DNA of 64,000 nucleotides from Escherichia coli (lineage in GTDB: Bacteria; Pseudomonadota; Gammaproteobacteria; Enterobacterales; Enterobacteriaceae), in NCBI RefSeq assembly GCF_044324785.1, contig NZ_CP172127.1; one strand, 5' to 3'. A program made the position numbers and the translations under genes. Position 1 is the first letter of the stretch, and every line of letters begins with the position of its first letter. Under the pieces are notes generated by a model. That model was not told the origin of the DNA. It did not search any database and saw only the letters and a list, made by a program, of their open reading frames with translations. Below, piece by piece: positions 4,886 through 50,331 of this stretch.

Positions 4886-4934
4886 ATAGCAATATATCTC
4901 AATATCTAAGAGCTGGTTTTTATATCGTTCATAG

Positions 4935-6143: not shown

Positions 6144-6177
6144 AAATAATTTGCGTAATAGTCAACTATGAAATTGT

Positions 6178-8942: not shown

Positions 8943-8951
8943 TTCAACTCC

Positions 8952-15009: not shown

Positions 15010-15093
15010 TATCGGTTTCCCTTTTGGTTTATAAACGAAAACGCCAGCCCTGTTCAGGCTGACGTCAGTGGAATGAAGTATGGTGAGTGATAT

Positions 15094-15516
15094 TTACCGG
15101 TTCTGGTGCAGAAGCTGCAGGTGACGAAGAGTACGGACATCCTCCCGGGCCTGTTCGATACAGGGCAACAGTGCTGCCGAATCCGTTTTATCCTCATCGT
15201 TGTCAAAGATAATTCCCGATTCGCAGTCGATATTGTCCTGCAGCCACGCAATGAGGATATCCAGCGCTGTTTCAGTGGTTAATGGCATCACGCTCTGTAT
15301 CACTGTATTGTCTTCCGGCAACTGATGAGGGCTGGCAGAAGTCGCCGGTGTTTCGGTAGCGTCACGTTTATCCACCACGCGGAGTGAATAACCGTTTTCA
15401 GCGACCTTGTTAATCAGTTCAATGAGATTAACACCATCGACGTCAACGACAATTCGCCCCATGTTCAGCGCCTGCACGTTAACGCTGTCGGCTTCCAGCG
15501 TCAGGGCCAGTTTCAT
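15094..15516 (-). CDS. hypothetical protein in yeeW-like position downstream of cbtA
   Basis: 140-aa ORF overlapping cbtA stop by 4 bp; N- and C-terminal parts conserved in copy 2 but the middle is replaced. Confidence 0.45.
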   Translation of the reverse strand: MKLALTLEADSVNVQALNMGRIVVDVDGVNLIELINKVAENGYSLRVVDKRDATETPATSASPHQLPEDNTVIQSVMPLTTETALDILIAWLQDNIDCESGIIFDNDEDKTDSAALLPCIEQAREDVRTLRHLQLLHQNR

Positions 15517-15890
15517 TGTTTCGCCTCCGGATGCTTACCCAGAGTAATGTTATTTACTGTTCGGTAATTGTCGCGGGTCATCAGGCCGGTCGCCCTGCGA
15601 GCCCGGAGGATATCGATGCTGTTTATTAACTGAGAGCGGGTACAGGCGCTGAATCCCGGCTGGTCGGTACGCACCAGCGCGTATTTTTCCACGAGAAAGT
15701 TCACCGCATCACACAGTGAAATGCCTGCCTCAATATGCTGCTCAATCACACGTTCATCAGCGAACGGTGTGTCATTCAGTGTGAGGCCGTAATGCTGGTC
15801 CAGCAGTCGGGTGAGCAGTGTATGCCAGATGGTGACGGGAGACGGGCAGCACGATGCCTCCCGTACGTGTGTGTCAGGTAATGTTTTCAT
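15513..15890 (-). CDS. cbtA: CbtA/YkfI/YpjF-family type IV toxin
   Basis: MKTLPDTHV...LTLNDTPFADERVIEQHIEAGISLCDAVNFLVEKYALVRTDQPGF recognised as CbtA family; track ORF trimmed to MKTLP. Confidence 0.8.
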   Translation of the reverse strand: MKTLPDTHVREASCCPSPVTIWHTLLTRLLDQHYGLTLNDTPFADERVIEQHIEAGISLCDAVNFLVEKYALVRTDQPGFSACTRSQLINSIDILRARRATGLMTRDNYRTVNNITLGKHPEAKQ

Positions 15891-15936
15891 CTTAAGTTCT
15901 CTGTAACTGGTAGTGCTAAAGGTGAGATATTCGGGG

Positions 15937-16311
15937 TTATGAGGTGGTTGCGGGTGCCAGTGTCGGATAAACAGCCATATAAACGTAACCACAGGAGCCG
16001 AGGGTGTCGGCTTCACAGGCCAGCCCCTTCGCATACAGTGTCACGGTATGCTGATGGCGGGGATTCAGTTCACCGCTGGTGAGCATGAGCTCCAGTTGTT
16101 TCATCAGCAGCGGAAAGGCCTGGTCCAGGTGGTACGCATCTGCATCGCTGAACAGGCCTCTGATACCGGCGCGGTCGGCAAGGTAATGCAACCGGTTACC
16201 CTCCTGCACCAGACGTGCCCCGAAACAGGGCGTCACGGTGCAGGGCAGCCCCCACCAGGGGCGGTCGTGATTGTCGTCGGGAAGTGTTGTCCCGGGGAGT
16301 GTGTCTGACAC
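15937..16311 (-). CDS. cbeA: CbeA/YafW/YfjZ-family antitoxin
   Basis: 124 aa MSDTLPGTTLPDDNHDRPWWGLPCTVTPCFGARLVQEGNRLHYLADRAGI...; immediately upstream of toxin. Confidence 0.8.
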   Translation of the reverse strand: MSDTLPGTTLPDDNHDRPWWGLPCTVTPCFGARLVQEGNRLHYLADRAGIRGLFSDADAYHLDQAFPLLMKQLELMLTSGELNPRHQHTVTLYAKGLACEADTLGSCGYVYMAVYPTLAPATTS

Positions 16312-16386
16312 GATAAAATCCTCACAGAAAATCGGTTAAGAATGGTCCGGTAGTGGCGATAATTCTGCTCATCAGAATGCCCTGAC

Positions 16387-16608
16387 TCAGTTCAGGGTGA
16401 CACTCATCAGGCGGACATACGGGCCAAAACTGTCCTTACGGCGTTCTGCAAATACAGCCAGCACACCGGGAATATCCTGCACTTCACGACCGGTATACGC
16501 CTCAGCACTGCCGTGCCAGCGGTATTTACCGGTACAGAACGGAAAAAGACGGGATGTCGGATGTTGTTGGTGAATACGCATGGCTTCACCACGGGTGATG
16601 ATTTTCAT
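16387..16608 (-). CDS. YeeT/YkfH/YpjJ-family small protein
   Basis: 73 aa; conserved position between radC-like and antitoxin genes. Confidence 0.65.
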   Translation of the reverse strand: MKIITRGEAMRIHQQHPTSRLFPFCTGKYRWHGSAEAYTGREVQDIPGVLAVFAERRKDSFGPYVRLMSVTLN

Positions 16609-16676
16609 GGTGTGATACCTCTGAAGACAGAAGATAAAAGTGAAAACAGGTGTGATGTGGTGGTGACGGTGACGGG

Positions 16677-17153
16677 TTAAAGCAGACCGTGTTCCGCAAA
16701 GGAGAAAACCTGGCTGCCACCGACTATCAGATGGTCCGGTACCCGGATATCCACCAGGCCCAGTGCCTGTACCAGACGTTCCGTGATAAGGCGGTCTGCC
16801 TTGCTGGGTGTGACTTCACCGGACGGGTGATTGTGTGCCAGCACCACGGCAGCGGCATTGTGGTACAGGGCGCGTTTAATCACTTCCCGGGGATGGACTT
16901 CCGTGCGGTTGATGGTGCCGGTGAAGAGGGTTTCACCGGCAATCAGCTGATTCTGGTTGTTCAGATACAGCACCCGGAATTCTTCACGCTCCAGTCCCGC
17001 CATGTTCAGAATCAGCCATTCCCGTGCCGCATGCGTGGAGGTGAAGGCCACGCCGGGTTCATGAAGATGGCGGTCCAGGGCTTTCAGGGCCCGCTGAATG
17101 AGGCTGCGCTCTCTGGTTGTCATTTCTCCGGGCAGAAAGGAAATCTGTTGCAT
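16677..17153 (-). CDS. RadC-like JAB-domain protein (YeeS/YkfG/YfjY family)
   Basis: 158 aa; JAMM-like HNHPSG motif (VLAHNHPSGEVTPSKAD). Confidence 0.8.
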   Translation of the reverse strand: MQQISFLPGEMTTRERSLIQRALKALDRHLHEPGVAFTSTHAAREWLILNMAGLEREEFRVLYLNNQNQLIAGETLFTGTINRTEVHPREVIKRALYHNAAAVVLAHNHPSGEVTPSKADRLITERLVQALGLVDIRVPDHLIVGGSQVFSFAEHGLL

Positions 17154-17168
17154 TGTTCCGGCCCCCTT

Positions 17169-17654
17169 TCAGTCAATGATGCGCATAATGGCGCTGCATT
17201 CCGGATGCTGCAGGGCGTAATCCCGCAGACGGTAATAATGAACCGTCATGGCATAACACTCCGTACGGCAGGCGTGATGACTGTACGTCATCAGACAGGC
17301 AGCAATGCCGGCGGCTTCCGGGCTCATTTCAGCGCGGTTACCGTTCATGGCATTGAACAGTACCCATGTTTCGTCATCATCATCATCCGGTTCGGGGGCC
17401 ATAAATGCCCCGCCGTTATTCAGTGTGTACAGATTCCAGATACCACCGCAGTAGTCTTCACACAGACGGTCCATCCAGCCGAAGACACGGGGCTCCAGGG
17501 TCACCCACTGTGGAATGAGGCCAAAGTGCTGTGGCCAGAAGCTGATGCACTGTTCATCAGGGACGGGAGTGGCAACCAGTTGAGACTGGTTATTCCCTGA
17601 TGCAGTAGTTACGGAAACAGAAGGTGTGGTGGAATTATGTGAAACGGTTGTCAT
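17169..17654 (-). CDS. antirestriction protein (KlcA/ArdB-like, YfjX/YafX family)
   Basis: Recognised family; start trimmed to MTTVSHN to match copy 2 length (161 aa). Confidence 0.7.
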   Translation of the reverse strand: MTTVSHNSTTPSVSVTTASGNNQSQLVATPVPDEQCISFWPQHFGLIPQWVTLEPRVFGWMDRLCEDYCGGIWNLYTLNNGGAFMAPEPDDDDDETWVLFNAMNGNRAEMSPEAAGIAACLMTYSHHACRTECYAMTVHYYRLRDYALQHPECSAIMRIID

Positions 17655-17744
17655 GATATTATTCCTTATAAAAAGCAAATGAATGAAGAAGGCTCGGGGG
17701 CAGGGACAGACGTGAGTCAGGACGGCGCTTTCAGGTAAACGGTA

Positions 17745-18563
17745 TCAGCGCATGTTCTCCAGCAGCGTTTCCGCCATCACCCATAATGCGCGATTGAGCT
17801 TAATATCGGTGTCGATGCTGTGAATGGCCCGGGTATGGATACGTTTTCCTCTGGCACTGCGGCCGGAAATTCCGCCTTTCAGCATATTCTCCTGGATGGT
17901 CTGATATGCGCTCCACAGGTCCTTACCGTAATCCTCCCTGCGTCGTGGCGTAAGAATGTCAGCGGTGGTGACGGGCTGATGTTCGTCACCATAACGGTAA
18001 GTCAGGGCCGCCTGTGCCAGCGCCTGGCGTGCCGGTGGCGGCAGGACCAGCGACTGCATGGCATCACGCTTCTCCTCTATCCGGTCAAACACGCCCACCA
18101 CCTCGTAAGCCCCTTCGATAACTTTCTCCACTACATTTCCCCGGTGTGGAACACGCACTTCCCCCAGAGACTGGCCACAGACGCACCCGTTCTGGCAGAC
18201 GAACCTGAAGTAACCCGGCAGCATCTGGTAGCTGGAGGTACCGTCATGAGAGTTGAGCAGAATAATTTCAGGGACATGTTCTCCGTTTATCTCTCCGGCC
18301 CGCCGCAGACGCAGCATGTGTTTGGTATACCCCCGGCGGCCCGGGTCACGTACGCGGGTCTGGCAGGCGAAGAACGGCTGAAAGCCTTCCCGCTGCAGAT
18401 TTTCCAGGACGGTAATGGTGGGAATGTACGCATACCGTTCACTGCGGGAGGTGTGCCGGTCTTCCCCAAAAATACTGGGTACATGGCGTATCAGTTCTTC
18501 ATGTGTCAGCGGACGGTCACGGCGTATCTGGTTTACATGACCAAAACGACTTGCTAATCGCAT
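17745..18563 (-). CDS. DUF932-like protein (YfjQ/YafZ family)
   Basis: 272 aa, MRLASRFGHVNQIRRDRPLT...; conserved CP4-type island gene. Confidence 0.65.
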   Translation of the reverse strand: MRLASRFGHVNQIRRDRPLTHEELIRHVPSIFGEDRHTSRSERYAYIPTITVLENLQREGFQPFFACQTRVRDPGRRGYTKHMLRLRRAGEINGEHVPEIILLNSHDGTSSYQMLPGYFRFVCQNGCVCGQSLGEVRVPHRGNVVEKVIEGAYEVVGVFDRIEEKRDAMQSLVLPPPARQALAQAALTYRYGDEHQPVTTADILTPRRREDYGKDLWSAYQTIQENMLKGGISGRSARGKRIHTRAIHSIDTDIKLNRALWVMAETLLENMR

Positions 18564-18653
18564 GATTTGCTCCTTATGAATGAGTTAGCGGTATAAATGA
18601 AAAAGCCGCGTCTTCTGGAGAAGACGCGGCCTGATGGATCAAGTGAATGACGT

Positions 18654-18887
18654 TTATTGCCTGAGAATTCCCTCACTGGCGAGATACGGATTTAGCTGTT
18701 TTCCGGCATCAGGTTCAAAATTCCAGCACCGCCAGCGTAGCTGCCCTTCAGCATTGCGAATAACCAACCGGGAATATGTTCCCTGGTCATCTTCAGTAAA
18801 CACATTGCGGTAAGCTGTTTTGACGGCAACAGCCTGTTCGCGTGAGAAAGGGCCTTCGGGCAATAAACGTGATGTACAACCCGGCAT
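18654..18887 (-). CDS. DUF905-like small protein (YkfF family)
   Basis: ORF trimmed to internal Met to match 77-aa paralog at 50098-50331. Confidence 0.55.
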
Positions 18888-29998: not shown

Positions 29999-30205
29999 TT
30001 ACGGACGGGACTGTGCAATACGCGCCTGCAGCCAGGCTTCCACTTCACTTTTCAGCCAGCGGGAGCTGCGGCCGAGTTTGATGGGAGCCGGAAAGGCCCC
30101 ATCCTTGATGAGCTTGTAAAACCACTTATCGGTCAGGCCGGTCAGCTGAGTGATAAACGTCATATCGACCATCTGGTCATCCATCAGCGAAACTGGGGTG
30201 GTCAT
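29999..30205 (-). CDS. alpA: AlpA-family phage/island transcriptional regulator
   Basis: 68 aa; FITQLTGLTDKWFYKLIKDGAFPAPIKLGRSSRWLKSEVEAWL is the AlpA/MerR-like excisionase-type HTH. Confidence 0.8.
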   Translation of the reverse strand: MTTPVSLMDDQMVDMTFITQLTGLTDKWFYKLIKDGAFPAPIKLGRSSRWLKSEVEAWLQARIAQSRP

Positions 30206-30588: not shown

Positions 30589-31380
30589 TTATTCTCTGTA
30601 ATTACAAACAACAGTGATCTGATCCGGTTTTTTTACCGTTACGGGTTTCCGGGGATCAATTTTATAGACCGGGGTAATGACCACGCCGGAATTTATGGAG
30701 AAAAGCGGGATCCAGCAATAAACGTCCGGATATTTCTGTGTCTCCGGAATACCTTTTGTGCCAGAGGCCATCAGATCTTTAACGCTCACGAAAAATGACT
30801 TCCGCAGATCAAAAAAGTACTCGTTATATATCACATCCTTTGCCAGCAGGATGACTGCATTACCAACAGCCGATTTTACAGGTGTTTCATCAGGTGGATT
30901 ATCGTGATTGTATATTGTTCTTTCTATATAAATAAAACAGGCATATTTCGTCTTCTCCCCGGATAGTTGCATCTGGTATTCGCAAATGTCTTTGATATAC
31001 CGACTTTCAACCCTTCCAATCATCTTATCCCGGCGATAGTGTCTTTTATGTTTCAGCGCGTACAGAACACCATTTGAACTGTCAAACTCCAGGACACTTC
31101 TGGTGAAAAGTTTGTTTTCCCAGATCTCCAGACAATACTTCTCTGCACTGACGACATTGCGTTTGTGGGGAAGATTCCGTTGATACACTCCATTTAATAA
31201 GCGTGACTGCAGTTCGCCTGCAAGTTGATAGTAACAGTTAATGTCATTAAGGACAGGTGCTGTGGCGTTGAGTAATGTGTTGATTACCTTAGAGCGCGAA
31301 AGTTTGTGGGTATGACAGTACTCATCCACAATTCGCAGTGTCTCATCACTGGTCATATTGAAAGTTATACGTGTTGTCAT
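30589..31380 (-). CDS. hypothetical protein: N-terminal ribbon-helix-helix-like domain fused to an unknown ~200-aa domain
   Basis: 263 aa, low GC; N-terminus ITFNMTSDETLRIVDEYCHTHKLSRSKVINTLL resembles a CopG/Arc RHH; remainder has no recognisable motif. Confidence 0.5.
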   Translation of the reverse strand: MTTRITFNMTSDETLRIVDEYCHTHKLSRSKVINTLLNATAPVLNDINCYYQLAGELQSRLLNGVYQRNLPHKRNVVSAEKYCLEIWENKLFTRSVLEFDSSNGVLYALKHKRHYRRDKMIGRVESRYIKDICEYQMQLSGEKTKYACFIYIERTIYNHDNPPDETPVKSAVGNAVILLAKDVIYNEYFFDLRKSFFVSVKDLMASGTKGIPETQKYPDVYCWIPLFSINSGVVITPVYKIDPRKPVTVKKPDQITVVCNYRE

Positions 31381-32797: not shown

Positions 32798-33397
32798 ATG
32801 AAGACTTACAACACCAATCCCGGTTACGAAATGGATCCCCAGCTCCTGACACACTTTAACCAGCATCTGGATTCATTATTCGGGGTATATTCGAAACTGT
32901 TACCGTTCAGAATGGATTTTGCTTACCGAAAAAACACCCTCAGCTACAGATGTGCCTGCAGGTACGCCATGTGCGCGGAGATACTGCGACTGATTAACGA
33001 AGTGGGAGAGAAACTGGTCGGGTATGCCTGGGTAATGGAATATACGGAACGTAAAGGGCTTCACATTCATTTTGTGGGCTATCTGAACGGTCAGAGCCAC
33101 AGGAGTTCGTATCTGGTATCCAGATTGATGGGAGATATCTGGAGGCGGGTTACCGGGGGGGATGGTTACTACCACTGGTGCCGGTTTAATAAAAATTATC
33201 CGGTAAACATTAACCACGTCATTCACTATTCAGATCACAAAGCGGTGAATGCCTTACGCTATGCCATCAGCTACCTGGCCAAACGAGAACAGAAAGAATG
33301 TGGCATCATCCTGAAATGCAGCGGGCTTCCTGAAAAAAGTAATCGGGGTCGACCGCGACTGGGCAGCCCCCTGCCGGAGACTTATTCTCTGGTGTAA
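32798..33397 (+). CDS. inovirus Gp2-type / YagK-YfjJ family protein (HUH replication-initiator-like)
   Basis: 199 aa; HUH-like LHIHFVGY motif; SD GAGGA. Confidence 0.65.
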   Translation: MKTYNTNPGYEMDPQLLTHFNQHLDSLFGVYSKLLPFRMDFAYRKNTLSYRCACRYAMCAEILRLINEVGEKLVGYAWVMEYTERKGLHIHFVGYLNGQSHRSSYLVSRLMGDIWRRVTGGDGYYHWCRFNKNYPVNINHVIHYSDHKAVNALRYAISYLAKREQKECGIILKCSGLPEKSNRGRPRLGSPLPETYSLV

Positions 33398-33762: not shown

Positions 33763-34152
33763 ATGACGATGTACGCAAAATCCTTTATTGCATTTGATGG
33801 CAACGGGCGTCTGACGGGTGCCCGTACCGCACAGACTGCACCTTACGATCGCTACACTTGCCACCTTTGCGGCAGTGCGCTCAGATACCACCCGCAATAC
33901 GACACTGAGCGTCCCTGGTTTGAACACACTGACGACGGGCTGACGGAGCACGGTCAGCAGTGCCCTTATGTCAGACCGGAACGCAGGGAGATACAACTGA
34001 TTAAGCGTCTGCAGCAATTCGTACCGGATGCCTTACCCGTGGTGCGTAAAGCCAGCCGGCACTGCAGACAATGTCATCACGATTATTATGGGGAGCGGTA
34101 CTGCACGCACAGCCATACCGGGCACTTCAGTGAGGAGGGGGTGGCAGAATGA
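33763..34152 (+). CDS. small zinc-ribbon protein (paralog 1 of a tandem pair)
   Basis: 129 aa; CHLCGSAL...WFEH followed by a C-terminal CxxC/His cluster; stop overlaps next start (ATGA). Confidence 0.5.
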   Translation: MTMYAKSFIAFDGNGRLTGARTAQTAPYDRYTCHLCGSALRYHPQYDTERPWFEHTDDGLTEHGQQCPYVRPERREIQLIKRLQQFVPDALPVVRKASRHCRQCHHDYYGERYCTHSHTGHFSEEGVAE

Positions 34153-34574
34153 ACGGTATAAAAACGGGGCTGGGGATCACGCCGGGTGAACACATTATCA
34201 GTGCTGATTCTGCGCTCAGCAGAAATATCCGGCAGTGTTTCTGCCTTTCCTGTCATGGCCGGTTGATTTTGCAGACAGATGCTCAGGGGGCGTGGTTTGA
34301 GCACGATTTACATGTCCTGAGCGAGCAACAGAAGGCAGCCTGCGTGGTGCTGAATCCGGAAAAGTCCCACCCTTACATTGAGGATATGGAGATGTTTTTA
34401 TCGCCATTACCGGTCGTGCTGGAGTGGCATTGTGTGATGTGTGAGCAGTTTTTTCATGGGAAGAAATTCTGTGAGGCCTGTGGTACGGGGATTTATTGCA
34501 GAGCGGTATGTACGAAGTCTGTTTACAGCTACCAGCCAGACTTGTTTCAGGACTGCGGAGGTGCGAGTACTTAA
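34149..34574 (+). CDS. small zinc-ribbon protein (paralog 2 of a tandem pair)
   Basis: 141 aa; CLSCHGRL...WFEH and CVMC...CEAC motifs parallel the upstream gene. Confidence 0.5.
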   Translation: MNGIKTGLGITPGEHIISADSALSRNIRQCFCLSCHGRLILQTDAQGAWFEHDLHVLSEQQKAACVVLNPEKSHPYIEDMEMFLSPLPVVLEWHCVMCEQFFHGKKFCEACGTGIYCRAVCTKSVYSYQPDLFQDCGGAST

Positions 34575-35045: not shown

Positions 35046-35612
35046 ATGTATACAGAATCAAATGTTAAGCTTTCCTGTAACGCCCTCTGGCAAAAGTGTG
35101 TCCTTGCAACTCTGTATCGGGCTGCAGCCACACATCCTGAAATTAAATTATTACAATTTAAATTAATACCAGGGCAGGGTATTAATAAGGCCATTCCCTC
35201 TCTGATGGCTGATTTTACTGGTGAACTGCATAGACTCATTTCTGAATATTTGCAGTGTAAGCGACGTAAAGAGCAATCTGTTGAGCCCACCCCTTTATAT
35301 TATCTCTGGAGTAGGGAAGCTGTGGCTAACGATACCACTCCTTATCTTATGGTGCTGCTACTTAATAACGATGTCTGGTGTAAGAGTCGTGAGGTGGTGG
35401 TTCTCAGAAATCTGATTGAGCAGGCGTGGGGAAAAGTATTGGGTGAAGATAACTCCATTACACATCTGGTTGTGTATCCTGAAGTGCTGTCGTTGGTATT
35501 TGATGCAGCTAACACATACAACGCTGAGCCTGCTGTACTGGAACAGACGGCCCGGGCTTACATTGAATCACATGGTACCATTGAACGTCATCTTGGGTGT
35601 AGTGACTTTTAA
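35046..35612 (+). CDS. YagK-like (inovirus Gp2-type) protein with degenerate HUH motif
   Basis: 188 aa; YLWSRE...PYLMVLLLNNDVWC aligns with the HYHVILLLNKDTWC motif of the 57669 paralog but lacks both His. Confidence 0.6.
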   Translation: MYTESNVKLSCNALWQKCVLATLYRAAATHPEIKLLQFKLIPGQGINKAIPSLMADFTGELHRLISEYLQCKRRKEQSVEPTPLYYLWSREAVANDTTPYLMVLLLNNDVWCKSREVVVLRNLIEQAWGKVLGEDNSITHLVVYPEVLSLVFDAANTYNAEPAVLEQTARAYIESHGTIERHLGCSDF

Positions 35613-35957
35613 CGTCAGGTGATGCATAAGGGCCTTTCGCTGAGAGGCCCTGTTTACACAATTAAATAAATCGAGCCCGACCAACAATTTTGATGTTAAC
35701 AGCAGGATTATTGAGGGGCAATCAATGTGTTCTTCGGTAGCGATTACGGTAGTGAACGGACCTGCTGTCTGAATGGCATCGATCCGCAAGCGTATCGGCG
35801 CCATATTCTGAGCGTACTACTGAAATGGCTAATGGCAGTAAAGAGAGACTTTACGTATATTTGCATAAAGCAGGATTTTACGACTAGTCAACATTCTTTA
35901 TAATTCTTCAGGTTCAGAGTATCTGACATATAGGGTTATGTATTGGGGAGACATTTA

Positions 35958-36659
35958 ATGTTTGGCCATCTGTTACGATACTTTAGTTTCTGTAAAAAAG
36001 ATTTATTAGTATTTCATCCTGAATCTGATTACTCAGATAATTTACATAAAGCCTTCTCTTTTACAAAAAGGCTAGGATTTAATGAAGAATGGAATGGGGT
36101 CACAAAAAACAAAGAATATGATTATCAGGATGTATTCAGTCATGTCTGTCTGCAGTCTGGTGTGACAGACTTTTCCGCTTCAGCAGGACAATGCTTAAAG
36201 TGGAGTCATTATTTTCAGCCATATTTTGAGAATATCCTTGAATGTCGGGTATGGGTTACCGTTGGACAACTCTGGAAACAGGAACGATTTATTTACAATC
36301 CGTCAGTTGCGGATTTTCAGCGCTGGTCTGAAAAAGGGATTCAGCCTGAAGATTTTAGACATCACTCGGGGTTTAACTTTCATGCGTGGTTGACGACGGA
36401 AAATGGTGTGATTGTGGATGTTTCCTTTATGAGTACGTTATCGCGGCGATTACCTGAACACCTGAGTGAAGTCAGTGGAAGTGTGATTATTGGCACGCCA
36501 GAGACGGTTCTTCCTGAGTATAAATATGTTCCCATGATTGTCGGTCAGAGGATTGTTGAGAAAATAGAAAAACGCTCTTTCATTGGTTTTCTGGCGCACG
36601 ACGATATTGATTTATATACAGTACCTGCAATCTTGGTTCCGGTATGGAAAGAATGTTAA
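35958..36659 (+). CDS. hypothetical orphan cargo protein
   Basis: Track ORF starts at TTG 35943; ATG at 35958 preceded by GGGGAG; 233 aa; low GC; no recognisable motif. Confidence 0.5.
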   Translation: MFGHLLRYFSFCKKDLLVFHPESDYSDNLHKAFSFTKRLGFNEEWNGVTKNKEYDYQDVFSHVCLQSGVTDFSASAGQCLKWSHYFQPYFENILECRVWVTVGQLWKQERFIYNPSVADFQRWSEKGIQPEDFRHHSGFNFHAWLTTENGVIVDVSFMSTLSRRLPEHLSEVSGSVIIGTPETVLPEYKYVPMIVGQRIVEKIEKRSFIGFLAHDDIDLYTVPAILVPVWKEC

Positions 36660-36978
36660 AGCACGGAATAACACTATGCACTTACCGCTTTCCGGAACTC
36701 AGCTTGTTACCTGAGCGGTCAACAGAGCAGTCTTTCAGTGTCTGCACTTGGTTGCCACTAAACCGGAGTCATTTATCAGAAGTATATGTTCATGGAAGGA
36801 TATTGTCAGCGCCAGTGATATAAGACGGTAATGAGGATAGCCACCCCGCATGGGTTTCCTCAACACTGGTCACTGTGACAAGCGCACCATGATCGTCTTT
36901 GTATCGCTGATTGACTTTCGATAATAGAACATCTTCTGACATAAATTTTAGTACGGTAACAATTAACTAAATTTTCAT

Positions 36979-37245
36979 GTGGTAGCACTGAATCAGGAGA
37001 CTGCGTTTCCTGATGTGTGCTTCTGCAGCCGTTACCGGATACAGACTTCGATACCAGTTACTTCGACATCCGCCATGTGTCCTGGGACCCGCTATAACGA
37101 AGTTGGAGGTAATCAGTACAGCGTTCCCGAAATGCTGTGTGGTCAGCCAGTCTCGATACGAATATCGCTGAACGATGAGTTGCGGATCTACAGTAATGAG
37201 AAACTGGTGGCCTCACATCGCCTCTGCTCAGTGTCGTCTGGCTAG
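36979..37245 (+). pseudogene. IS21-family IstA C-terminal fragment (remnant)
   Basis: ...NQYSVPEMLCGQPVSIRISLNDELRIYSNEKLVASHRL resembles an IstA C-terminus; no N-terminal part. Confidence 0.35.
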
Positions 37246-37389: not shown

Positions 37390-38816
37390 TCATGCCAGTG
37401 GACTCATTACCCTCTGCCTGAGTAGTTCAAATCCTGCTCGACCATACATCTGGCGTTTCAGCATCTTCAGGCGATTTACATGACCTTCGACAACACCATT
37501 ACTCCAGTGACTACTGATTGCCTCACATATAGCTGCAGCATCAGCTTCCATCCCCGCCGCCACGCGCCGAAATTCTGCTGAACCGCTTTCGTGGACTCGA
37601 GTGAACCAACTGCTTAGCTGTGATTTATTTTGGGTTTTCAGAATACGGTAGAACTCGAGTGCCAGTTGCTGCGCTATTTTCAGCTCAGGTTCTTTTTCAC
37701 ACATCAGACTAATAAATCGGGAAGCATAATTTTCTTCATCCCTGGTTATTCTCCAGGGCATCAACCAGCGGCTTACCCGGGACACTGAAGGAAGTCTGAC
37801 GGCAGTAGTAACCGGTGGGTTCCAGCCTTTACGCCATTTGGCAACCGCATCCCTGACGATGGTTTCACTGCCTGTAAATCCCCGGGCCACCATTTCCCGC
37901 CATATCCGGCTGGCGTTATAATTACCACTTTCTCGTTGCTCTTTTAACCACTCCCTCCATGGGTCCAGAAGCCCTCGCTTTGGCGGTCGGGTTGACATTT
38001 CAGGGAATGTTCCTGAACGCACCCAGCGACTGACTGTCACACGCGACAGGCCTGTAATACGGGATATTTCCCTGAAACTACATCCCTTGTTATGCAGGGC
38101 CATAACCTCTGTCCAACGCTGATGCCGTTTTTTGCGGGTTTGTTGTTTTAGGCGTTCCGGACGACGGAGCGATGCTGCAGGCACAGATGGTTCTGGATCA
38201 GGTGATTTCTTTGGTGACAACTCACTGGCAACAAGACGTATCAGAGGTATATGTCTATACATCATTCGTTCAGGCGCATCGCCAATATTTTTTAGCAGAT
38301 GCCATCGATCGGCCACCTGTCTGGCCTGAGGTGCACCTTCACGTGCTGCTGTCGCATAGACTCCACTGCGATCACGCGAGACAATCTGTATTTCCGGATA
38401 TTTTCTGAACCAGGTCGCCAGCGTACGCTGATCACGGCCGGGAAGCAGGACGAGGGGACGGTGAGTATCAAGATTGACGATTAACGTACCGTAACGGTGG
38501 CCCCGATGCCACGCCCACTCATCAATACCGACATGAGGCGAGCCTGACTGTTTCGTCTCCGGGGTATTGATAACCCTGCGAAGGAGAGTATCAGCACTGC
38601 AACGGAGACCCACTGCCGTTGCTGCCCGTTTCCCGGCCTCACCTCCGGCGATTAATCCCAGTTGACGTTGTAAATTTTGTAACGCCTGTGAAGACTGTTG
38701 GTGTGAACCGGCGAAGGGAGCAAGCGACTCGGCAAAAATTTTACGTGAACAAGCCGGGTTACGGCAGTACCAGTGGCGGACAGAAAATACAAGCCATAGC
38801 GTATGTCCTGAGCAGG
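37390..38816 (-). CDS. ISL3-family-like transposase, 5' end truncated by IS2
   Basis: GIDEWAWHRGHRYGTLIVNLD DDE-domain start and C-terminal SNGVVEGHVNRLKMLKRQMYG motif typical of ISL3; track ORF start lies inside the IS2 terminus. Confidence 0.5.
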
Positions 38817-38827
38817 TGGATTTGCCC

Positions 38828-39733
38828 CTATATTTCCAGACACCTGTTATCACTTAACCCATTACTGGCCTGCTGCCGCAGATATTCCCGTGGCGAGCGA
38901 TAACCCAGTGCACTATGCGGATGCCATTCGTTATAATGCTCGAACGCCTCTGCAAGGTTCTTTGCTGCCGTTAACCCGTCTGGTTTAGGCATGATACTGA
39001 TGTAGTCACGCTTTATCGTTTTCACGAAGCTCTCTGCTATGCCGTTACTCTCCGGACTCCGCACCGCCGTGTTCTTCGGTTCAAGCCCCAACATCCGGGC
39101 AAACTGCCGTGTTTCATTAGCCCGGTAGCATGAACCATTATCCGTCAGCCACTCTACTGGAGACGCCGGAAGCTCGTTGCCGAAGCGGCGTTCCACCGCT
39201 CCTGGCATGACGTCCTGTACTGTTTCACTGTCGAAGCCGCCCGTAGTGACTGCCCAGTGCAGTGCCTCACGGTCACAGCAGTCCAGCGCGAACGTGACTC
39301 GCAGTTTTTCTCCGTTATCACAGCGGAACTCGAACCCGTCAGAGCACCATCGTTGATTGCTTTCTTTCACGGCCACTTTGCCAGTATGTGCCCGTTTCGA
39401 TGGCGGTACAGCGGTTTTTCGCTCAAGCAACAGCGCATTCTGGCGCATGATCCGGTAAACACGTTTGGCATTGATCGCAGGCATACCATCAAGTTCGGCC
39501 TGTCTGCGAAGCAGCGCCCATACCCGACGATAACCATACGTGGGCAGCTCTCCGATAACATGGTGTATACGGAGAAGCACATCCGTATCATCTGAGTGAC
39601 GGCTGCGGCGACCATCTTTCCAGTCATCGGTTCGTCTGAGAATTACGTGCAACTGCGCACGCGACACCCGGAGACAACGGCTGACTAAGCTTACTCCCCA
39701 TCCCCGGGCAATAAGGGCGCGTGCGCTATCCAC
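38828..39733 (-). CDS. insD: IS2 transposase OrfB (InsD)
   Basis: 301 aa recognised as IS2 InsD (DDE integrase core). Confidence 0.9.
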
Positions 39734-40056
39734 TTTTTTGCACGCCCGTATTCAACGGCTTCTTTAAGGAGTTCATTTTCCATCGTTTTTTTGCCGAGCA
39801 GGCGCTGGAGTTCTTTAATCTGCTTCATGGCAGCAGCAAGTTCAGAGGCAGGAACGACCTGCTCTCCTGCGGCCACAGCAGTAAGACTTCCCTCCTGGTA
39901 TTGCTTGCGCCAGAGAAATAACTGGCTGGCTGCCACACCGTGTTGCCGGGCAACAAGGGAGACCGTCATTCCCGGTTCAAAACTCTGCTGAACAATAGCG
40001 ATCTTTTCCTGTGTAGTACGCCGTCTGCGTTTCTCCGGTCCTAAGACATCAATCAT
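39691..40056 (-). CDS. insC: IS2 OrfA (InsC)
   Basis: [56 protein letters not shown]; track ORF trimmed to MIDVLG. Confidence 0.9.
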
Positions 40057-40613
40057 CTGCTCTCCAATGACTAGTCTAAAAACTAGTATTAAGACTATCA
40101 CTTATTTAAGTGATATTGGTTGTCTGGAGATTCATGGGGCCAGTCTAATGTGTATCCGGGATGGATGTTTACCAGAACCTTCTCTGTTCCAGTGTGTGGA
40201 GTTTTACAGAAGAGGCGACTGTATGCAACTCTTGCCCCGTAACTGTCTTTATTCGTTTCTCCACACTCTCCGGACATTGTAAATTCCAGATGTGTGGCAG
40301 TGTGTTTTTCGTAAATCGTACACAATGCATTTTTACACGGAGTTCAGCCAGTCGTATCACTGAGAGTTTTTTTCTGATTTGTACCACTCATGCAGCAGTG
40401 ATAAGGAGATATTTTCTCTGTCGGGCCAGCAGGGGCGGTGCCACCTGTTTAGTTTTCTTATGTTTGGTAAAAGAGAGGCTAAAATATATACAACAGGCGT
40501 ATGTAATGATTCATATTGTTAATCATTAACCAGTAAGAATTAATGTAGTGGATCGGTAATTCAGGACACCTCGAAATCCTGTTAATGTTAAAACAGTGAA
40601 AATGGGGTGATGC

Positions 40614-45252: not shown

Positions 45253-46122
45253 TTATGCCTTGCTGCTTTTGTTCACTGTGCTTGCCAGGGCTTCCGGGTA
45301 GTGTCTGGCAATAATATCATTAAGCCTGTCAACCAGCTCTGGTTTCCTGAACGTGATGTGCGCGGAGCCCTTCTTAAAGTATCTGATGCTGAACATCTCA
45401 TCTTCATAGTCCTCTTTACCCTGAACAGACTGGATGTGATCATCCAGATGAATGGTGATGTTTTCCCGGTTGTCGGGGATCGGTTTGCCGCTGAACAGGT
45501 GTAGCATTCTTTCCAGATCGGCAAGTCGATCTGCCTGTGGGCCGTTGTTCAGATGAAACCCCCACCGGTCCCACCTCACCAGGTTGTTGACGATAATTTT
45601 ACTGCCAAATTTGCAGGGGCAATTGGTTTTGTAATTCCAGCTCAGTCCCCTGAAGACGTTGATCACCCCTCGCTCAAACACCTCATCCTTATTCTGGTGC
45701 AGTTGTTCAAATGTGCTCAGAATGTTCGCTTCGCAGATTTCCGGAAAATTATCGTACTCCAGTGACCGGTACCATGTATCACGGGCTTGTGCATCCATTA
45801 ATGACAGCATCCCTGAACGTTGCATCAGGTCACGCCAGAGTTCGCGATCGAGATTCCGGGTGATGGCTTTCATTGCGGTTTCCGGTTTCTCCATCAGCCA
45901 GCAACCGCAGCGAAAATCCTGTTTCATGGCCCAGTCCCGGGCGGTTTTACCTCCAATACTTTCTGTCATTGCTGATATTTCAGCCAGTTGCCGGATAAGT
46001 GTGTCGATTTGCAGCAGTGTACTCTTTCGTACAGCCAGAATGTGGCGGATACTGGTTGAGCAAATAACGTCCGTATGCCCGGTGACCACTTCCGGACGGG
46101 AGGCTGTGATATCTGACATCAT
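45253..46122 (-). CDS. conserved island hypothetical protein (paralog of 14167-15009)
   Basis: 289 aa, near-identical to copy 1 over most of its length. Confidence 0.6.
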   Translation of the reverse strand: MMSDITASRPEVVTGHTDVICSTSIRHILAVRKSTLLQIDTLIRQLAEISAMTESIGGKTARDWAMKQDFRCGCWLMEKPETAMKAITRNLDRELWRDLMQRSGMLSLMDAQARDTWYRSLEYDNFPEICEANILSTFEQLHQNKDEVFERGVINVFRGLSWNYKTNCPCKFGSKIIVNNLVRWDRWGFHLNNGPQADRLADLERMLHLFSGKPIPDNRENITIHLDDHIQSVQGKEDYEDEMFSIRYFKKGSAHITFRKPELVDRLNDIIARHYPEALASTVNKSSKA

Positions 46123-46412
46123 CGTTTTTCCTTTTGGTTTATAAACGAAAACGCCAGCTGTATTCAGGCTGGCGTCAGGGGAATGAAGTATGGTGAGTGA
46201 TATTCACCGGTTCTGGTGCAGAAGCTGCAGTTGGCGCAGGGTACGGATATCTTCCCTGGCCTGTTCAATGCAGGGCAGCAGTGCTGTCGAATCCGTTTTA
46301 TCCTCATCGTTGTCAAAGATAATTTCCGATTCGCAGTCAATATTGTCCTGCAGCCACGCAATCAGAATATCCAGCGCTGTTTCCGTGGTTAATGATTTCA
46401 TGTTGTTCCAGG

Positions 46413-46901
46413 TTACCAGTTGAAAGTGGGTAAACCCGGCAGGCATTCAGCGCTGGCATCCAGATGAATGAGACTGACGCCATAACGTCGGGTAAGTGTG
46501 ACAACCAGACGGCGGAACGTTTTTGACAGGCCCAGGCGCTTAAGCCGCAAAACCGGGTATGACCACGCATCGGTACGTAACAGATATCCGCTACCTGTGA
46601 AATGAATCCATTCTGATTCGCCGGTGTCATTCGTCTGATGTGACAGCGAGTACAACCAGGCATTGTCCGTTTCCGTGATATGTGCGGTACTGCAGCGTAT
46701 GCCGGTAAGGGCCGCAGATGGTGGCGTGCGCTCTGCTGATGCCCGGTCAGATTCATCAACAACACGAAGGGAGTAACCGTTATCGCAGACCACGTTAATC
46801 AGTTCAGCGAGAGTAACACCATCGACGTCAACGACAATGCGCCCCATGTTCAGTGCCTGCACGTTAATGCTGTCGGCTTCCAGCGTCAGGGCCAGTTTCA
46901 T
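46413..46901 (-). CDS. hypothetical protein in yeeW-like position (variant of 15094-15516)
   Basis: 162 aa; N-terminal 50 aa match copy 1, then a divergent inserted segment; copy-1 C-terminus appears in a separate frame (46204-46446). Confidence 0.4.
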   Translation of the reverse strand: MKLALTLEADSINVQALNMGRIVVDVDGVTLAELINVVCDNGYSLRVVDESDRASAERTPPSAALTGIRCSTAHITETDNAWLYSLSHQTNDTGESEWIHFTGSGYLLRTDAWSYPVLRLKRLGLSKTFRRLVVTLTRRYGVSLIHLDASAECLPGLPTFNW

Positions 46902-47275
46902 TGTTTCGCCCCCGGATGTTTACCCAGGGTAATGTTATTTACCGTTCTGTAATTTTCGCGGGCCATCAGGCCGGTTGCCCGGCGTGCCCGGAGGATATCA
47001 ATACTGTTTATTAACTGAGAACGGGTACAGGCGCTGAATCCCGGCTGGTCGGTACGTACCAGCGCGTATTTTTCAACGAGAAAGTTCACCGCATCACACA
47101 GTGAAATGCCCGCTTCAATATGCTGCTCAATCACACGTTCATCAGCGAACGGTGTGTCATTCAGCGCGAGGCCGTAGTGCTGGTCCAGTAACCGGGTGAG
47201 CAGTGTCTGCCAGATGGTGACGGGAGACGGGCAGCACGATGCCTCCCGTACATGCGTGTCGGGTAATGTTTTCAT
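46898..47275 (-). CDS. cbtA: CbtA-family toxin, copy 2
   Basis: MKTLPDTHVREASCCPSPVTIWQTLL...; track ORF trimmed. Confidence 0.8.
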   Translation of the reverse strand: MKTLPDTHVREASCCPSPVTIWQTLLTRLLDQHYGLALNDTPFADERVIEQHIEAGISLCDAVNFLVEKYALVRTDQPGFSACTRSQLINSIDILRARRATGLMARENYRTVNNITLGKHPGAKQ

Positions 47276-47364
47276 AATGAAGATTTTCCTGATATGCAGA
47301 GATAAAAAATGGGACAGTGGCGTGGTGAAAGCACCAGGCCGGAGCAGAAGGTTATTCTGGAGAG

Positions 47365-47733
47365 TTACTTTTTCGTTTCGGGCGTCGGATAAACAGCCAT
47401 ATAAACGTAGCCACAACTGCCGAGGGTGTCGGCTTCGCAGGTCAGCCCTTTTGCATACAGTGTCACGGTATGCTGATGGCGGGGATTCAGTTCACCGCTG
47501 GTGAGCATGAGTTCCAGTTGTTTCATCAGCAGCGGAAAGGCCTGGTCCAGGTGGTACGAATCCGCGTCGCTGAACCGCCCTCTAATACAGGCGCGGTCGG
47601 CAAGGTAATGCAACCGGTTGCCTTCCTGTACCAGACGGGCACCAAAACAGGGCGTCACGGTGCAGGGCAGTCCCCACCAGGTGCGGTCGTTATTGTCGTC
47701 GGGAAGCGTTGTCCCGGGGAGTGTGTCTGACAC
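47365..47733 (-). CDS. cbeA: CbeA-family antitoxin, copy 2
   Basis: 122 aa paralog of 15937-16311. Confidence 0.8.
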   Translation of the reverse strand: MSDTLPGTTLPDDNNDRTWWGLPCTVTPCFGARLVQEGNRLHYLADRACIRGRFSDADSYHLDQAFPLLMKQLELMLTSGELNPRHQHTVTLYAKGLTCEADTLGSCGYVYMAVYPTPETKK

Positions 47734-47817
47734 GATAAAATCCTCACAGAAAATTGGTTAAGAATGGTCCGGTGGTGGCGATAATTCTGCTCTTCTGAAT
47801 GCCCTTCCAGACTCAGT

Positions 47818-48034
47818 TCAGGGTGACGCTCATCAGCCGGACATACGGACCAAAACTGTCCTTCCGGCGTTCTGCAAACACAGCCAGCACACCGGGAATA
47901 TCCTGTACTTCACGGCCGGTATATGTATCCGTGCTACCGTGTCAGCGGTATTTACCGGTACAGAACGGAAAAAGACGGGATGCAGGATGCTGACGGTGAA
48001 TACGCATGGCTTCACCACGGGTGATGATTTTCAT
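47818..48034 (-). pseudogene. YeeT-family gene, copy 2, with premature stop
   Basis: Collinear with 16387-16608, but the Trp codon in GKYRWHG reads as TGA in this copy. Confidence 0.45.
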
Positions 48035-48120
48035 GAGAATAGTCCTCCTGAATGTGAAAGTAAGAAACAGCTGAGAAAGAGAAACTGAAGTGATATGAAG
48101 GTGATTGTGACGGTGACGGG

Positions 48121-48597
48121 TTAAAGCAGACCGTGTTCCGCAAAGGAGAAAACCTGGCTGCCACCGATTATCAGATGGTCCGGTACCCGGATATCCACCA
48201 GGGCCAGTGCCTGTACCAGACGCTCGGTGATAAGGCGGTCTGCCTTGCTGGGGATGACTTCACCGGACGGGTGATTGTGCGCCAGCACCACGGCAGCGGC
48301 ATTGTGGTACAGGGCGCGTTTAATCACCTCCCGGGGATGGACTTCTGTGCGGTTGATGGTGCCAGTGAAGAGGGTTTCACCGGTAATCAGCTGATTCTGG
48401 TTATTCAGATACAGCACCCGGAATTCTTCACGCTCCAGTCCCGCCATGTTCAGAATCAGCCATTCCCGTGCCGCATGCGTGGAGGTGAAGGCCACGCCGG
48501 GTTCATGAAGATGGCGGTCCAGGGCTTTCAGGGCCCGCTGAATGAGGCTGCGCTCGCCGGGTGTCATCTCTCCGGGCAGAAAGGAAAGCTGCTGCAT
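48121..48597 (-). CDS. RadC-like JAB-domain protein, copy 2
   Basis: Paralog of 16677-17153; start trimmed to MQQLSF. Confidence 0.8.
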   Translation of the reverse strand: MQQLSFLPGEMTPGERSLIQRALKALDRHLHEPGVAFTSTHAAREWLILNMAGLEREEFRVLYLNNQNQLITGETLFTGTINRTEVHPREVIKRALYHNAAAVVLAHNHPSGEVIPSKADRLITERLVQALALVDIRVPDHLIIGGSQVFSFAEHGLL

Positions 48598-48612
48598 TGT
48601 CCCTGCCTCCAT

Positions 48613-49098
48613 TCAGTCGATGATGCGCATAATGGCGCTGCATTCCGGATGCTGCAGGGCATAATCCCGCAGCCGGTAATAATGAACCGTCATGGCATAA
48701 TTCTCTGTACGACAGGCGTGATGGCTGTACGCCATCAGACAGGCGGCAATGCCGGCGGCTTCCGGGCTCATTTCAGCGCGGTTACCGTTCATGACGTTAA
48801 ACAGCACCCATGTTTCGTCATCATCGTCATCCGGTTCAGGTGCCATAAATGCGCCACCGTTGTTCAGGGTGTACAGATTCCAGATGCCCCCGCAGTAGTC
48901 TTCGCACAGACGGTCCATCCAGCCGAAGACACGGGGCTCCAGGGTCACCCACTGTGGAATGAGGCCAAAATGCTGCGGCCAGAAGCTGATGCGCTGTTCA
49001 TCAGGGACGGGAGTGGCAACCAGTTGAGACTGGTTATTCCCTGATGCAGTAGTTACGGAAACAGAAGGTGTGGTGGAGCTATGCGAAAAGGTTGTCAT
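48613..49098 (-). CDS. antirestriction protein (KlcA/ArdB-like), copy 2
   Basis: 161 aa paralog. Confidence 0.7.
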   Translation of the reverse strand: MTTFSHSSTTPSVSVTTASGNNQSQLVATPVPDEQRISFWPQHFGLIPQWVTLEPRVFGWMDRLCEDYCGGIWNLYTLNNGGAFMAPEPDDDDDETWVLFNVMNGNRAEMSPEAAGIAACLMAYSHHACRTENYAMTVHYYRLRDYALQHPECSAIMRIID

Positions 49099-49189
49099 GA
49101 GATGATTCCTTATAAAAAGTAAATGAATGGAAGAATGCCTGGGGACTGGTACAGACGTGAGTCAGGGCTGCACTTTCAGGGAAACAGCA

Positions 49190-50008
49190 TCAGCGCATGC
49201 TCTCCAGCAGCGTTTCTGCCATCACCCACAACGCCCGGTTGAGCTTAATGTCGGTATCGATGCTGTGAATGGCCCGGGTATGGATACGTTTTCCTCTGGC
49301 ACTGCGACCGGAAATCCCGCCTTTCAGCATATTTTCCTGGATGGTCTGATAAGCACTCCACAGGTCCTTACCGTAATCCTCCCGGCGTCGTGGCGTCAGA
49401 ATGTCGGTAGTGGTGACGGGCTGATGTTCATCACCATAACGGTAAGTCAGCGCCGCCTGTGCCAGCGCCTGGCGTGCCGGTGGCGGCAGGACCAGCGACT
49501 GCATGGCATCACGCTTTTCCTCAATCCGGTCAAACACGCCCACCACTTCGTAAGCACCTTCAATCACCCTGTCCACCACGTTTCCCCGGTGGGGCACCCG
49601 GACTTCTCCCAGCGACTGACCGCAGACCAAGCCATTGGTGCAGATGGCACGAAAATATCCGGGTAACATCTGATAGCTGGATGAACCGTCATGGGAGTTG
49701 AGCAGAATAATTTCAGGCACATGCTGACCGGTTATCTGTCCGGCCCGCCGCAGACGCAGCATATGTTTGGTATATTCCCGGCGGCTCTGGTCGCGCACAC
49801 GGGTCTGGCAGGCGAAGAACGGCTGAAAGCCTTCCCGCTGCAGATTTTCCAGGACGGTGATGGTGGGAATGTACGCATACCGTTCACTGCGGGAGGTGTG
49901 CCGGTCTTCTCCAAAAATACTCGGGACGTGGTACATCAGTTCTTCGCGTGTCAGTGGGCGCTCCCGACGGATCTGATTTACATGACCAAAACGACTGGCT
50001 AATTGCAT
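49190..50008 (-). CDS. DUF932-like protein (YfjQ/YafZ family), copy 2
   Basis: 272 aa paralog. Confidence 0.65.
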   Translation of the reverse strand: MQLASRFGHVNQIRRERPLTREELMYHVPSIFGEDRHTSRSERYAYIPTITVLENLQREGFQPFFACQTRVRDQSRREYTKHMLRLRRAGQITGQHVPEIILLNSHDGSSSYQMLPGYFRAICTNGLVCGQSLGEVRVPHRGNVVDRVIEGAYEVVGVFDRIEEKRDAMQSLVLPPPARQALAQAALTYRYGDEHQPVTTTDILTPRRREDYGKDLWSAYQTIQENMLKGGISGRSARGKRIHTRAIHSIDTDIKLNRALWVMAETLLESMR

Positions 50009-50097
50009 ACTTTGCTCCTTATGAATGAATTAGCGGTATAAACGAAAAGGCCGCGTCTCCCGGAGAAGACGCGGCCTGATGGATGAAATGAAGACGT

Positions 50098-50331
50098 TTA
50101 TTGCCTGAGAATTCCCTCACTGGCGAGATACGAATTTAGCTGTTTTCCGGCATCAGGTTCAAAATTCCAGCACCGCCAGCGTAGCTGCCCTTCGGCATTG
50201 CGGATAACCAGCCGGAAATGCGTTCCCTGGTCATCTTCAATAAGCACATTGCGGTAAGCTGTTGTGACGGCAACCGCCTGTTCGCGTGAGAAAGGGCCTT
50301 CGGGCAATAAAACAGGGTGGCAGTCCGACAT
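50098..50331 (-). CDS. DUF905-like small protein, copy 2
   Basis: 77 aa paralog. Confidence 0.55.

Follow-up and report, generated by a model that had tools for sequence, protein, structure and literature searches.

A Cargo Gene of Escherichia coli Genomic Islands Encodes a Predicted Papain/Transglutaminase-like Thiol Enzyme of an Uncatalogued Family

Introduction

The papain-like core is defined by a catalytic Cys at the N-terminus of a helix, a His on strand β2, and a polar residue (Asp or Asn) on strand β3 (PMC10318531). A 64,000-nucleotide stretch of the Escherichia coli contig NZ_CP172127.1 (assembly GCF_044324785.1; hereafter, the window) contains a gene for a hypothetical protein of 233 amino acids, WP_000466879.1 (hereafter, the target), which is predicted here to possess such a core with a putative Cys79-His142-Asp154 triad. 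The closest known systems include the SseI/PMT-C3 glutamine deamidases (Tox-PLDMTX, PF15645; PDB 4g29 and 2ebf), the transglutaminase-like superfamily (PF01841; animal TG2, TG3, and FXIII; bacterial TglA (9crn), TgpA, LapG, and 3isr), and protein-glutaminase and NTAQ1 (C8orf32).

The target differs from each of them. SseI is a type III secretion system effector that carries an N-terminal translocation domain and acts on eukaryotic G-alpha-i; the target, at 233 amino acids, has no such domain. Residues 1-187 of SseI match SifA, and no such match was obtained for the target in the catalogue and PDB searches. Unlike this effector, the target family occurs on islands of many non-pathogens. Membership in the SseI/PMT deamidases was rejected, with a probability of 0.4% in the hhalign comparison with SseI (sequence taken from Gifsy-2) and no match to PF15645 among 136 family members. 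The target and the 136 members also fail the Pfam model of Transglut_core (PF01841) proper. In comparison with the transglutaminase-like superfamily, the target has a different N-terminal helical domain, no flanking β-sandwich or barrel domains, and a His-to-Asp spacing of 12 residues instead of the 23 in TG2; LapG and TgpA carry a signal peptide, which the target lacks. Protein-glutaminase, which is secreted with a pro-peptide, and NTAQ1, a eukaryotic N-degron enzyme, show no sequence relationship to the target. The nearest analogue in possible purpose appears to be DUF2026 (PF09641), an uncharacterised cluster-III papain-like family encoded beside restriction-endonuclease and PIWI-like genes, a location that hints at a conflict role (PMC10318531).

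Conserved Residues and Predicted Fold

Conservation was counted in an alignment of 136 family sequences with a mean column identity of 16%. Residues G103, H142, and W144 were invariant, and T101, T146, P192, G196, and Y25 were nearly invariant; the counts for the putative catalytic residues are listed in Table 1. The AlphaFold2 model built from the same 136 sequences had a predicted local distance difference test score (pLDDT) of 93.8 and a predicted template modelling score of 0.89, with all five models scoring at least 93, and superseded a mediocre earlier AlphaFold model from 9 sequences (pLDDT 71). In the model, a helix starting at Cys79 (residues 79-94) is followed by strands 98-107, 142-147, and 152-154. 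Both features of the papain-like core, namely the Cys at the helix start and the His and Asp on the next strands, were present in the model. Structural similarity also pointed to the papain/transglutaminase fold (SCOP d.3, clan CL0125), the similar solved structures being mostly Cys-His-Asp enzymes; the Foldseek search of the model against PDB and BFVD gave no significant match.

The family motifs G-Q-C-L/W, N-F/L-H-A/C-W-L/I/V, and I/L-D-P/V-T/S match the transglutaminase motifs G-x-C, H-x-W, and D-P-T by eye. When the family profile was aligned by hhalign with residues 275-404 of TG2 (a segment checked against PDB beforehand), SGFNFHAWL was paired with MIWNFHCWV over 9 columns at a non-significant probability of 2.7%. 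This local match, limited to the His motif, places H142 on the catalytic H335 of TG2.

A papain/transglutaminase-like fold is very probable for the target, and a catalytically active thiol enzyme using the predicted Cys79-His142-Asp154 triad is probable. The target represents a new unnamed family inside a known fold class; it is a member of no catalogued family and is not categorically new. This readable enzyme class had been overlooked in the original prediction, which was made from the nucleotide sequence of the window and reported no recognisable motif. That statement holds for the catalogued hidden Markov models (HMMs) and fails for the family itself, which has a conserved Cys-His-Asp signature.

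Family and Catalogue Searches

A word-indexed search with the target gave 11 clusters, all unnamed, and an exhaustive HMM search of 1.84 billion representatives gave 387 clusters at E ≤ 1e-3; for 114 clusters the match reached E ≤ 1e-10. The clusters were counted at 50% identity, and 387 is a minimum family size, so the designation of the gene as an orphan had to be abandoned. Many family members are about 185 amino acids long and originate from metagenomes; those bearing any name are all called "hypothetical protein".

The target protein had no Pfam match at E ≤ 1 and none in NCBIfam, and neither it nor the Klebsiella aerogenes ortholog matched any family of PADLOC-DB v2 at E ≤ 1. Its sole PHROGs match was non-significant (E = 0.15), and the PDB sequence searches, profile search included, gave no significant match for the target family. 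The comparison of 136 diverse members with Pfam detected no papain/transglutaminase clan family (CL0125) at E ≤ 0.1, the only hits being scattered single-member noise. A second word-indexed search with a deep alignment, aimed at distant relatives that carry an annotation or a fused domain, yielded 17 proteins without any Pfam domain, and the extensions of the longer members P0113, P0150, P0145, P0014, and P0011 had no Pfam match. Homology to a housekeeping or phage structural protein, named in the original prediction as evidence that would count against it, was looked for in sequence, profile, and structure searches and was not found. In the literature, no paper mentions WP_000466879 or WP_000466881, and nothing was found connecting transglutaminase-like proteins with defence islands. 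Since the catalogue searches with the protein, the 136 members, and the profile gave nothing relevant, the target family is, as judged by these comparisons, real, sizeable, and uncatalogued.

Coding Sequence and Selection

The open reading frame (ORF) of the target is intact, running from an ATG at position 35,958 to a stop ending at 36,659 and encoding 233 amino acids. The PGAP annotation of identical E. coli chromosomes assigns the same coordinates and the same ATG to the "hypothetical protein" WP_000466879.1. The gene has a G+C content of 39.5% (35% at third codon positions), compared with 47.4% in the window, and a Shine-Dalgarno sequence 7 nt ahead of the ATG, in agreement with the earlier description of a low-GC gene of 233 codons with its own ribosome-binding signal. 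The ratio of nonsynonymous to synonymous substitution rates (dN/dS) ranged from 0.08 to 0.19 between the target and four intact enterobacterial orthologs or alleles (Kluyvera, K. aerogenes, Providencia, and the second E. coli allele). A chance ORF was dismissed because of these values, and the target is a real gene under purifying selection. The two E. coli alleles are 15 nt and 4 amino acids apart, with a dN/dS of 0.09 and conserved catalytic residues. The case for a promoter belonging to the gene itself, such as the sigma-70-like site in Table 1, is weak because promoter-like sites around the target are no commoner than in shuffled sequence (7 found versus 5.2 ± 2.2).

Distribution and Island Position in Escherichia coli

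The target was found in 66 of 5,426 complete E. coli genomes (1.2%), always on the chromosome, as two alleles (at least 99% and about 97.7%), and was intact in 65 of the 66. In E. coli strain 3908 (NZ_CM128561.1, 1722001-1723479), the match is split by an IS1A transposase, and this copy is apparently disrupted by IS1. The tblastn searches of PLSDB plasmids and GenBank phages gave no target match. The only match in a viral collection was a 52-kb IMG/VR entry (IMGVR_UViG_2724679140_000011), 98% identical and with an intact DUF4222 neighbour, which is probably an E. coli island called as a provirus and not a true phage.

These data bear on the idea that the gene is a decaying passenger, a silent relic among insertion sequence (IS) debris with no present function in this E. 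coli island. Transposase and DUF4222 remnants on both flanks, the apparently interrupted copy of strain 3908, a frameshifted ortholog in Erwinia psidii, and the rarity of the gene would agree with decay. The intactness of nearly all copies, the low dN/dS between the alleles, the conserved catalytic residues, and the preserved Shine-Dalgarno sequence and spacing argue against it, and decay is considered very improbable.

At three chromosomal sites in E. coli, the island genes are arranged in the order integrase, two hypotheticals, helix-turn-helix (HTH) protein, hypothetical, PRTase-like, Gp2, YagK, transposase remnant, target, and convergent DUF4222. The target is the first gene after the conserved core, and the cargo beyond it differs from island to island. 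An ST131 strain has a type I restriction-modification system there, an O22:H8 strain has a two-partner-secretion haemagglutinin, and the window has IS debris. Where this core occurs without the target, it is followed by IS26-fosA3, by sugar-catabolism genes, or by IS5 and then the chromosomal pga genes. A query containing YagK matched 1,445 genomes, 237 of them at coverage of at least 80%, compared with the 66 that carry the target. The gene had been predicted to be an island payload; this reading is supported because same-core islands lack the target and the YagK query matches far more genomes. The target occupies, as cargo that may also be absent, the first variable position of integrase-bearing islands.

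Genomic Contexts in Other Bacteria and Metagenomes

Within the limits of its search pattern, a genome scan at species level gave only eight loci, all in Proteobacteria. In Kluyvera, K. aerogenes, and Erwinia psidii, the target lies about 150 bp downstream of, and on the same strand as, a gene for a 568-aa OLD-family nuclease, whose best match was the stand-alone PADLOC "Old" (E = 1e-77). Also near the target are PD-Lambda-1 and, within 0.2-3 kb, an Arm-DNA-bind_3 tyrosine integrase with AlpA; genes of a type VI secretion system (T6SS) flank the target loci of Kluyvera, Klebsiella, and Erwinia. In the K. aerogenes contig LVUB01000095.1 (locus L007), PD-Lambda-1 (4654-5898, E = 3e-86) and the Old-type nuclease (8136-9842) are interleaved with TssE and TssA/VasL; these defence genes sit just inside an integrase-bounded island and form a defence mini-island within or beside the T6SS cluster. 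The ortholog in Erwinia psidii (NZ_RHHM01000025.1, 7995-8688), about 69% identical, is split into two overlapping ORFs by an apparent frameshift, with the upstream OLD gene intact.

In following an OLD-family ATPase-TOPRIM gene at these three Enterobacterales loci, the target resembles the accessory partners of OLD-family nucleases, GajB of Gabija and AriB of PARIS. Unlike these partners, it is neither a UvrD helicase nor a DUF4435/TOPRIM protein, and it matches no GajB or AriB model. An OLD-partnered two-gene system, with OLD as an obligate partner, was rejected, as Kluyvera, K. aerogenes, and Erwinia are the only cases with an OLD neighbour, and most family loci, including those of E. coli, Providencia, Pseudomonas, and the metagenomes, lack one. 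DUF4222 was rejected as a family-wide partner because it is restricted to E. coli. The all-against-all BLAST of neighbours from 16 loci found no partner kept beyond closely related elements.

Secretion-related neighbours raise the question of whether the target is an interbacterial toxin or immunity protein tied to contact-dependent inhibition (CDI) or T6SS loci. In addition to the T6SS genes in the three Enterobacterales genera, a two-partner-secretion haemagglutinin locus lies downstream of the target in E. coli RM10809-3, and in Providencia the target is 445 bp downstream of a gene for a 3,840-aa CdiA with a PT-VENN domain. Moreover, amidases and deamidases of the papain fold often serve as effector domains (PMC10318531). 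Nevertheless, PAAR, VENN, and MIX features and a signal peptide are all lacking in the protein, and the loci share no small immunity-like ORF beside the gene. In Providencia, the putative CdiI position after the CdiA C-terminus is taken by a separate ORF of 76 aa, with the target 219 bp further downstream, and most family loci have no secretion system. A CDI/T6SS toxin-immunity module was rejected for lack of delivery domains and for the last two findings, and an interbacterial function of this kind has only a slight probability.

The other loci carry varied sets of neighbours. SIR2_2, NERD, CHAT, and TraG were found at Pseudomonas loci, and a SMODS-like nucleotidyltransferase, an AAA protein, DUF6602, and MobI near the target in two other Pseudomonas strains; nSTAND3, DUF4062-TPR, and SLATT are near it in Paraburkholderia, and DUF4238 is a neighbour in Duganella. 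Among the metagenome contigs, one has Fic/VbhA pairs and PhdYeFM, another YaaC and BubE, and a third (L034) CBASS, Zeta, and Fic. In two further contigs (SRR35521924_1921 and SRR25303806_175, 4925-8564), the gene for a 187-aa family member begins 2 nt past the stop codon of Vsr, in a tight cluster with the genes for an EcoRII-C endonuclease and a Dcm-type methylase. The cluster stands where the tail module of a Mu-like prophage ends, and a HEF_HK/Response_reg_2 pair lies upstream. The gene arrangement in these two contigs is the sole context that suggests an operon with a known system.

All of the approximately 16 independent loci examined lie in accessory regions of mobile elements, and by a simple count over these loci, defence or conflict genes occur within a few kilobases at most of them. 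Across Proteobacteria and metagenomes, the regions are rich in genes for defence, counter-defence, and toxins. Judging from these surroundings, the gene acts as an independent accessory unit, spread by horizontal transfer and deposited in hotspots of conflict.

Such hotspots could be occupied for either side of the conflict. As a counter-defence factor, the enzyme would act on a defence protein of the host, such as a restriction enzyme or an OLD-type nuclease; its cleavage or deamidation would shield the incoming island, integrative and conjugative element (ICE), or prophage, with which the enzyme would travel in the manner of ArdA. Several contexts agree with this and weigh against a defensive role. 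In Providencia, the genes next to the target encode ArdA and an integrase; in Saezia, the gene lies within an ICE region, together with DUF3275, DUF3577, and an orphan methyltransferase of the DUF6094/Eco57I-like type; and a metagenome contig (L030) encodes an N6_N4 methyltransferase, DUF2958, and integrases. In contig SRR31070085_4860 (L033, 8001-9053), the gene directly follows an ICE integrase, with SSB nearby, and MobI adjoins it at locus L020. The gene is always on mobile elements, mostly near the integrase end. On the other side, defence genes outnumber known anti-defence genes among the neighbours, and the tight packing behind EcoRII-Dcm-Vsr suggests co-operation with the restriction module rather than opposition to it. 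Anti-defence genes are usually abundant on plasmids and phages, and the lack of tblastn matches in PLSDB plasmids and GenBank phages is also unfavourable to counter-defence, which is judged unlikely but is the strongest of the alternatives to defence.

The contexts also admit an element-maintenance or regulatory protease, which would process a repressor or another island protein and so control excision or induction. Its position immediately after the conserved core in E. coli would suit such a role. In L033, where the family member has 350 amino acids, including an N-terminal extension of about 160 aa with no Pfam match, the gene lies next to the integrase, near HTH_3 regulators and alongside a ThiF/Multi_ubiq/Peptidase_M78 cluster, and in L034 an AraC-type HTH ORF overlaps the gene start by 4 nt. 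However, a function central to the life cycle of the element would be expected to follow the presence of the core, and the gene is optional in E. coli, being absent from islands with an identical core and present in 66 genomes against at least 237 with the core gene; furthermore, the neighbouring regulators differ in every lineage. A regulatory protease is therefore regarded as improbable.

Proposed Mechanism and Role

In the proposed mechanism, His142, oriented by Asp154, would activate the Cys79 thiol, and the thiolate would attack the amide carbonyl of a protein or peptide with the formation of a thioester acyl-enzyme. Resolution of the thioester with water would amount to peptide-bond cleavage or deamidation of Gln, and resolution with an amine to transamidation. 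The former chemistry is known for SseI, PMT, protein-glutaminase, NTAQ1, LapG, and PeiW, and the latter for transglutaminases. Substrate recognition or gating is probably provided by the helical region formed by the first 75 or so residues, in which Y25, F29, and A32 are conserved. On infection, the enzyme would modify a phage or host target in a protective, defence-type role.

A role in phage/mobile-element conflict is considered fairly likely. The complete description, a soluble stand-alone thiol enzyme of the papain/transglutaminase fold with a single-gene role in such conflict, has about an even chance of being correct. The defence direction is tentatively favoured over counter-defence because defence genes are the commonest neighbours and a family member is tightly packed behind a restriction-modification module. 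The family may even be an unrecognised single-gene immune or counter-immune module that deamidates, cleaves, or cross-links a phage or host protein upon entry of a phage or foreign DNA and thereby decides the outcome of infection, a possibility that is rather unlikely at present. To our knowledge, such chemistry is used by no catalogued stand-alone bacterial defence system.

Other Features of the Window

The features around the target are listed in Table 1. The target had been placed directly downstream of the YagK-domain gene; a 345-bp spacer holding the IS66-type remnant was found to separate them, and this remnant was inherited together with the target in every E. coli island examined. The IS graveyard described downstream of the target was recovered, with the DUF4222 and Mu-transposase remnants and the ISL3- and IS3-family elements located there.

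Table 1. Coordinates of the target gene, its putative signals and catalytic codons, and its neighbours in the window.
Feature	Position	Strand	Basis or remarks
Target coding sequence, 233 aa (WP_000466879.1)	35958..36659	+	ORF list, PGAP annotation, dN/dS, family conservation, model
Shine-Dalgarno sequence GGGGAG	35945..35950	+	Read from sequence; 7-nt spacer to ATG
Sigma-70-like site TTTACG-16-TATAAT, 10/12 matches	35877..35904	+	Possible own promoter; alone not significant
Cys79, putative catalytic nucleophile (codon TGC)	36192..36194	+	C in 132/136; N-terminus of helix 79-94
His142, putative general base (codon CAT)	36381..36383	+	H in 136/136; first of strand 142-147; H-x-W motif
Asp154, putative third triad residue (codon GAT)	36417..36419	+	D in 123/136, E in 13/136; ends strand 152-154
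YagK/YfjJ_C-domain gene, last of conserved island core	35046..35612	+	PF11726, E = 8e-10
Weak IS66-type transposase C-terminal remnant	35727..35903	+	PF13817, E = 8e-4, below curated cut-off; PGAP "transposase domain-containing protein, incomplete"
Frameshifted DUF4222 remnant, convergent with target	36738..36942	-	Intact in other E. coli islands
Mu-transposase C-terminal remnant, opens IS-rich stretch	36979..37245	+	PF22483, E = 4e-11
ISL3-family (ISEc38-like) transposase	37390..38853	-	Annotation and domain scan
IS3-family orfA/orfB, after ISL3-family transposase	38828-40101		Annotation and domain scan

The YagK-domain gene is one of two Gp2/YagK-type genes on the plus strand, the other located at 32798-33397. 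The product of the latter contains an H-I-H (HUH-like) motif and a sub-threshold match to REP_ORF2-G2P (24.7 bits versus a cut-off of 27.8); by inspection, the 35046 product apparently has L-M-V at this place. The term "paralog" is a loose description of the pair because their BLASTP similarity was not significant (E = 0.48). Two tandem paralogous genes on the same strand (33763-34152 and 34149-34574) overlap by 4 nt, and both products combine DUF7828 (PF25165, E = 3e-31 and 4e-22) with a C-terminal zinc ribbon (PF11682). This pair, annotated by PGAP as "putative zinc ribbon protein", is uncharacterised and conserved in this island type.

A conserved hypothetical gene of 263 codons (30589-31380, minus strand) adjoins an AlpA-like gene (29999-30205) and matched nothing in Pfam, PADLOC, or PHROG. 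In the K. aerogenes locus L007, a comparable position (10861-11673) is occupied by a 270-aa gene with weak PADLOC PDC-S31 matches. Regions 14195-18867 and 45305-50311 form a direct repeat of about 4.7 kb with about 91% identity in three collinear blocks, which suggests two copies of one island module in the window.

Conclusions

Through this analysis, a protein annotated only as "hypothetical protein" becomes an enzyme that can be put to the test, and three of its residues are named as putatively catalytic. The unnamed family to which it belongs, comprising at least 387 clusters, would merit a Pfam/InterPro entry in the papain-like clan. The defence and counter-defence neighbourhoods on islands, ICEs, and prophage ends in which the family consistently lies make the target a reasonable candidate for phage-resistance or anti-restriction screens. 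If it has no conflict role, it would be an ordinary accessory enzyme; if the proposed role is true, protein deamidation, proteolysis, or cross-linking by a transglutaminase-fold enzyme would join the chemistry of bacterial conflict.
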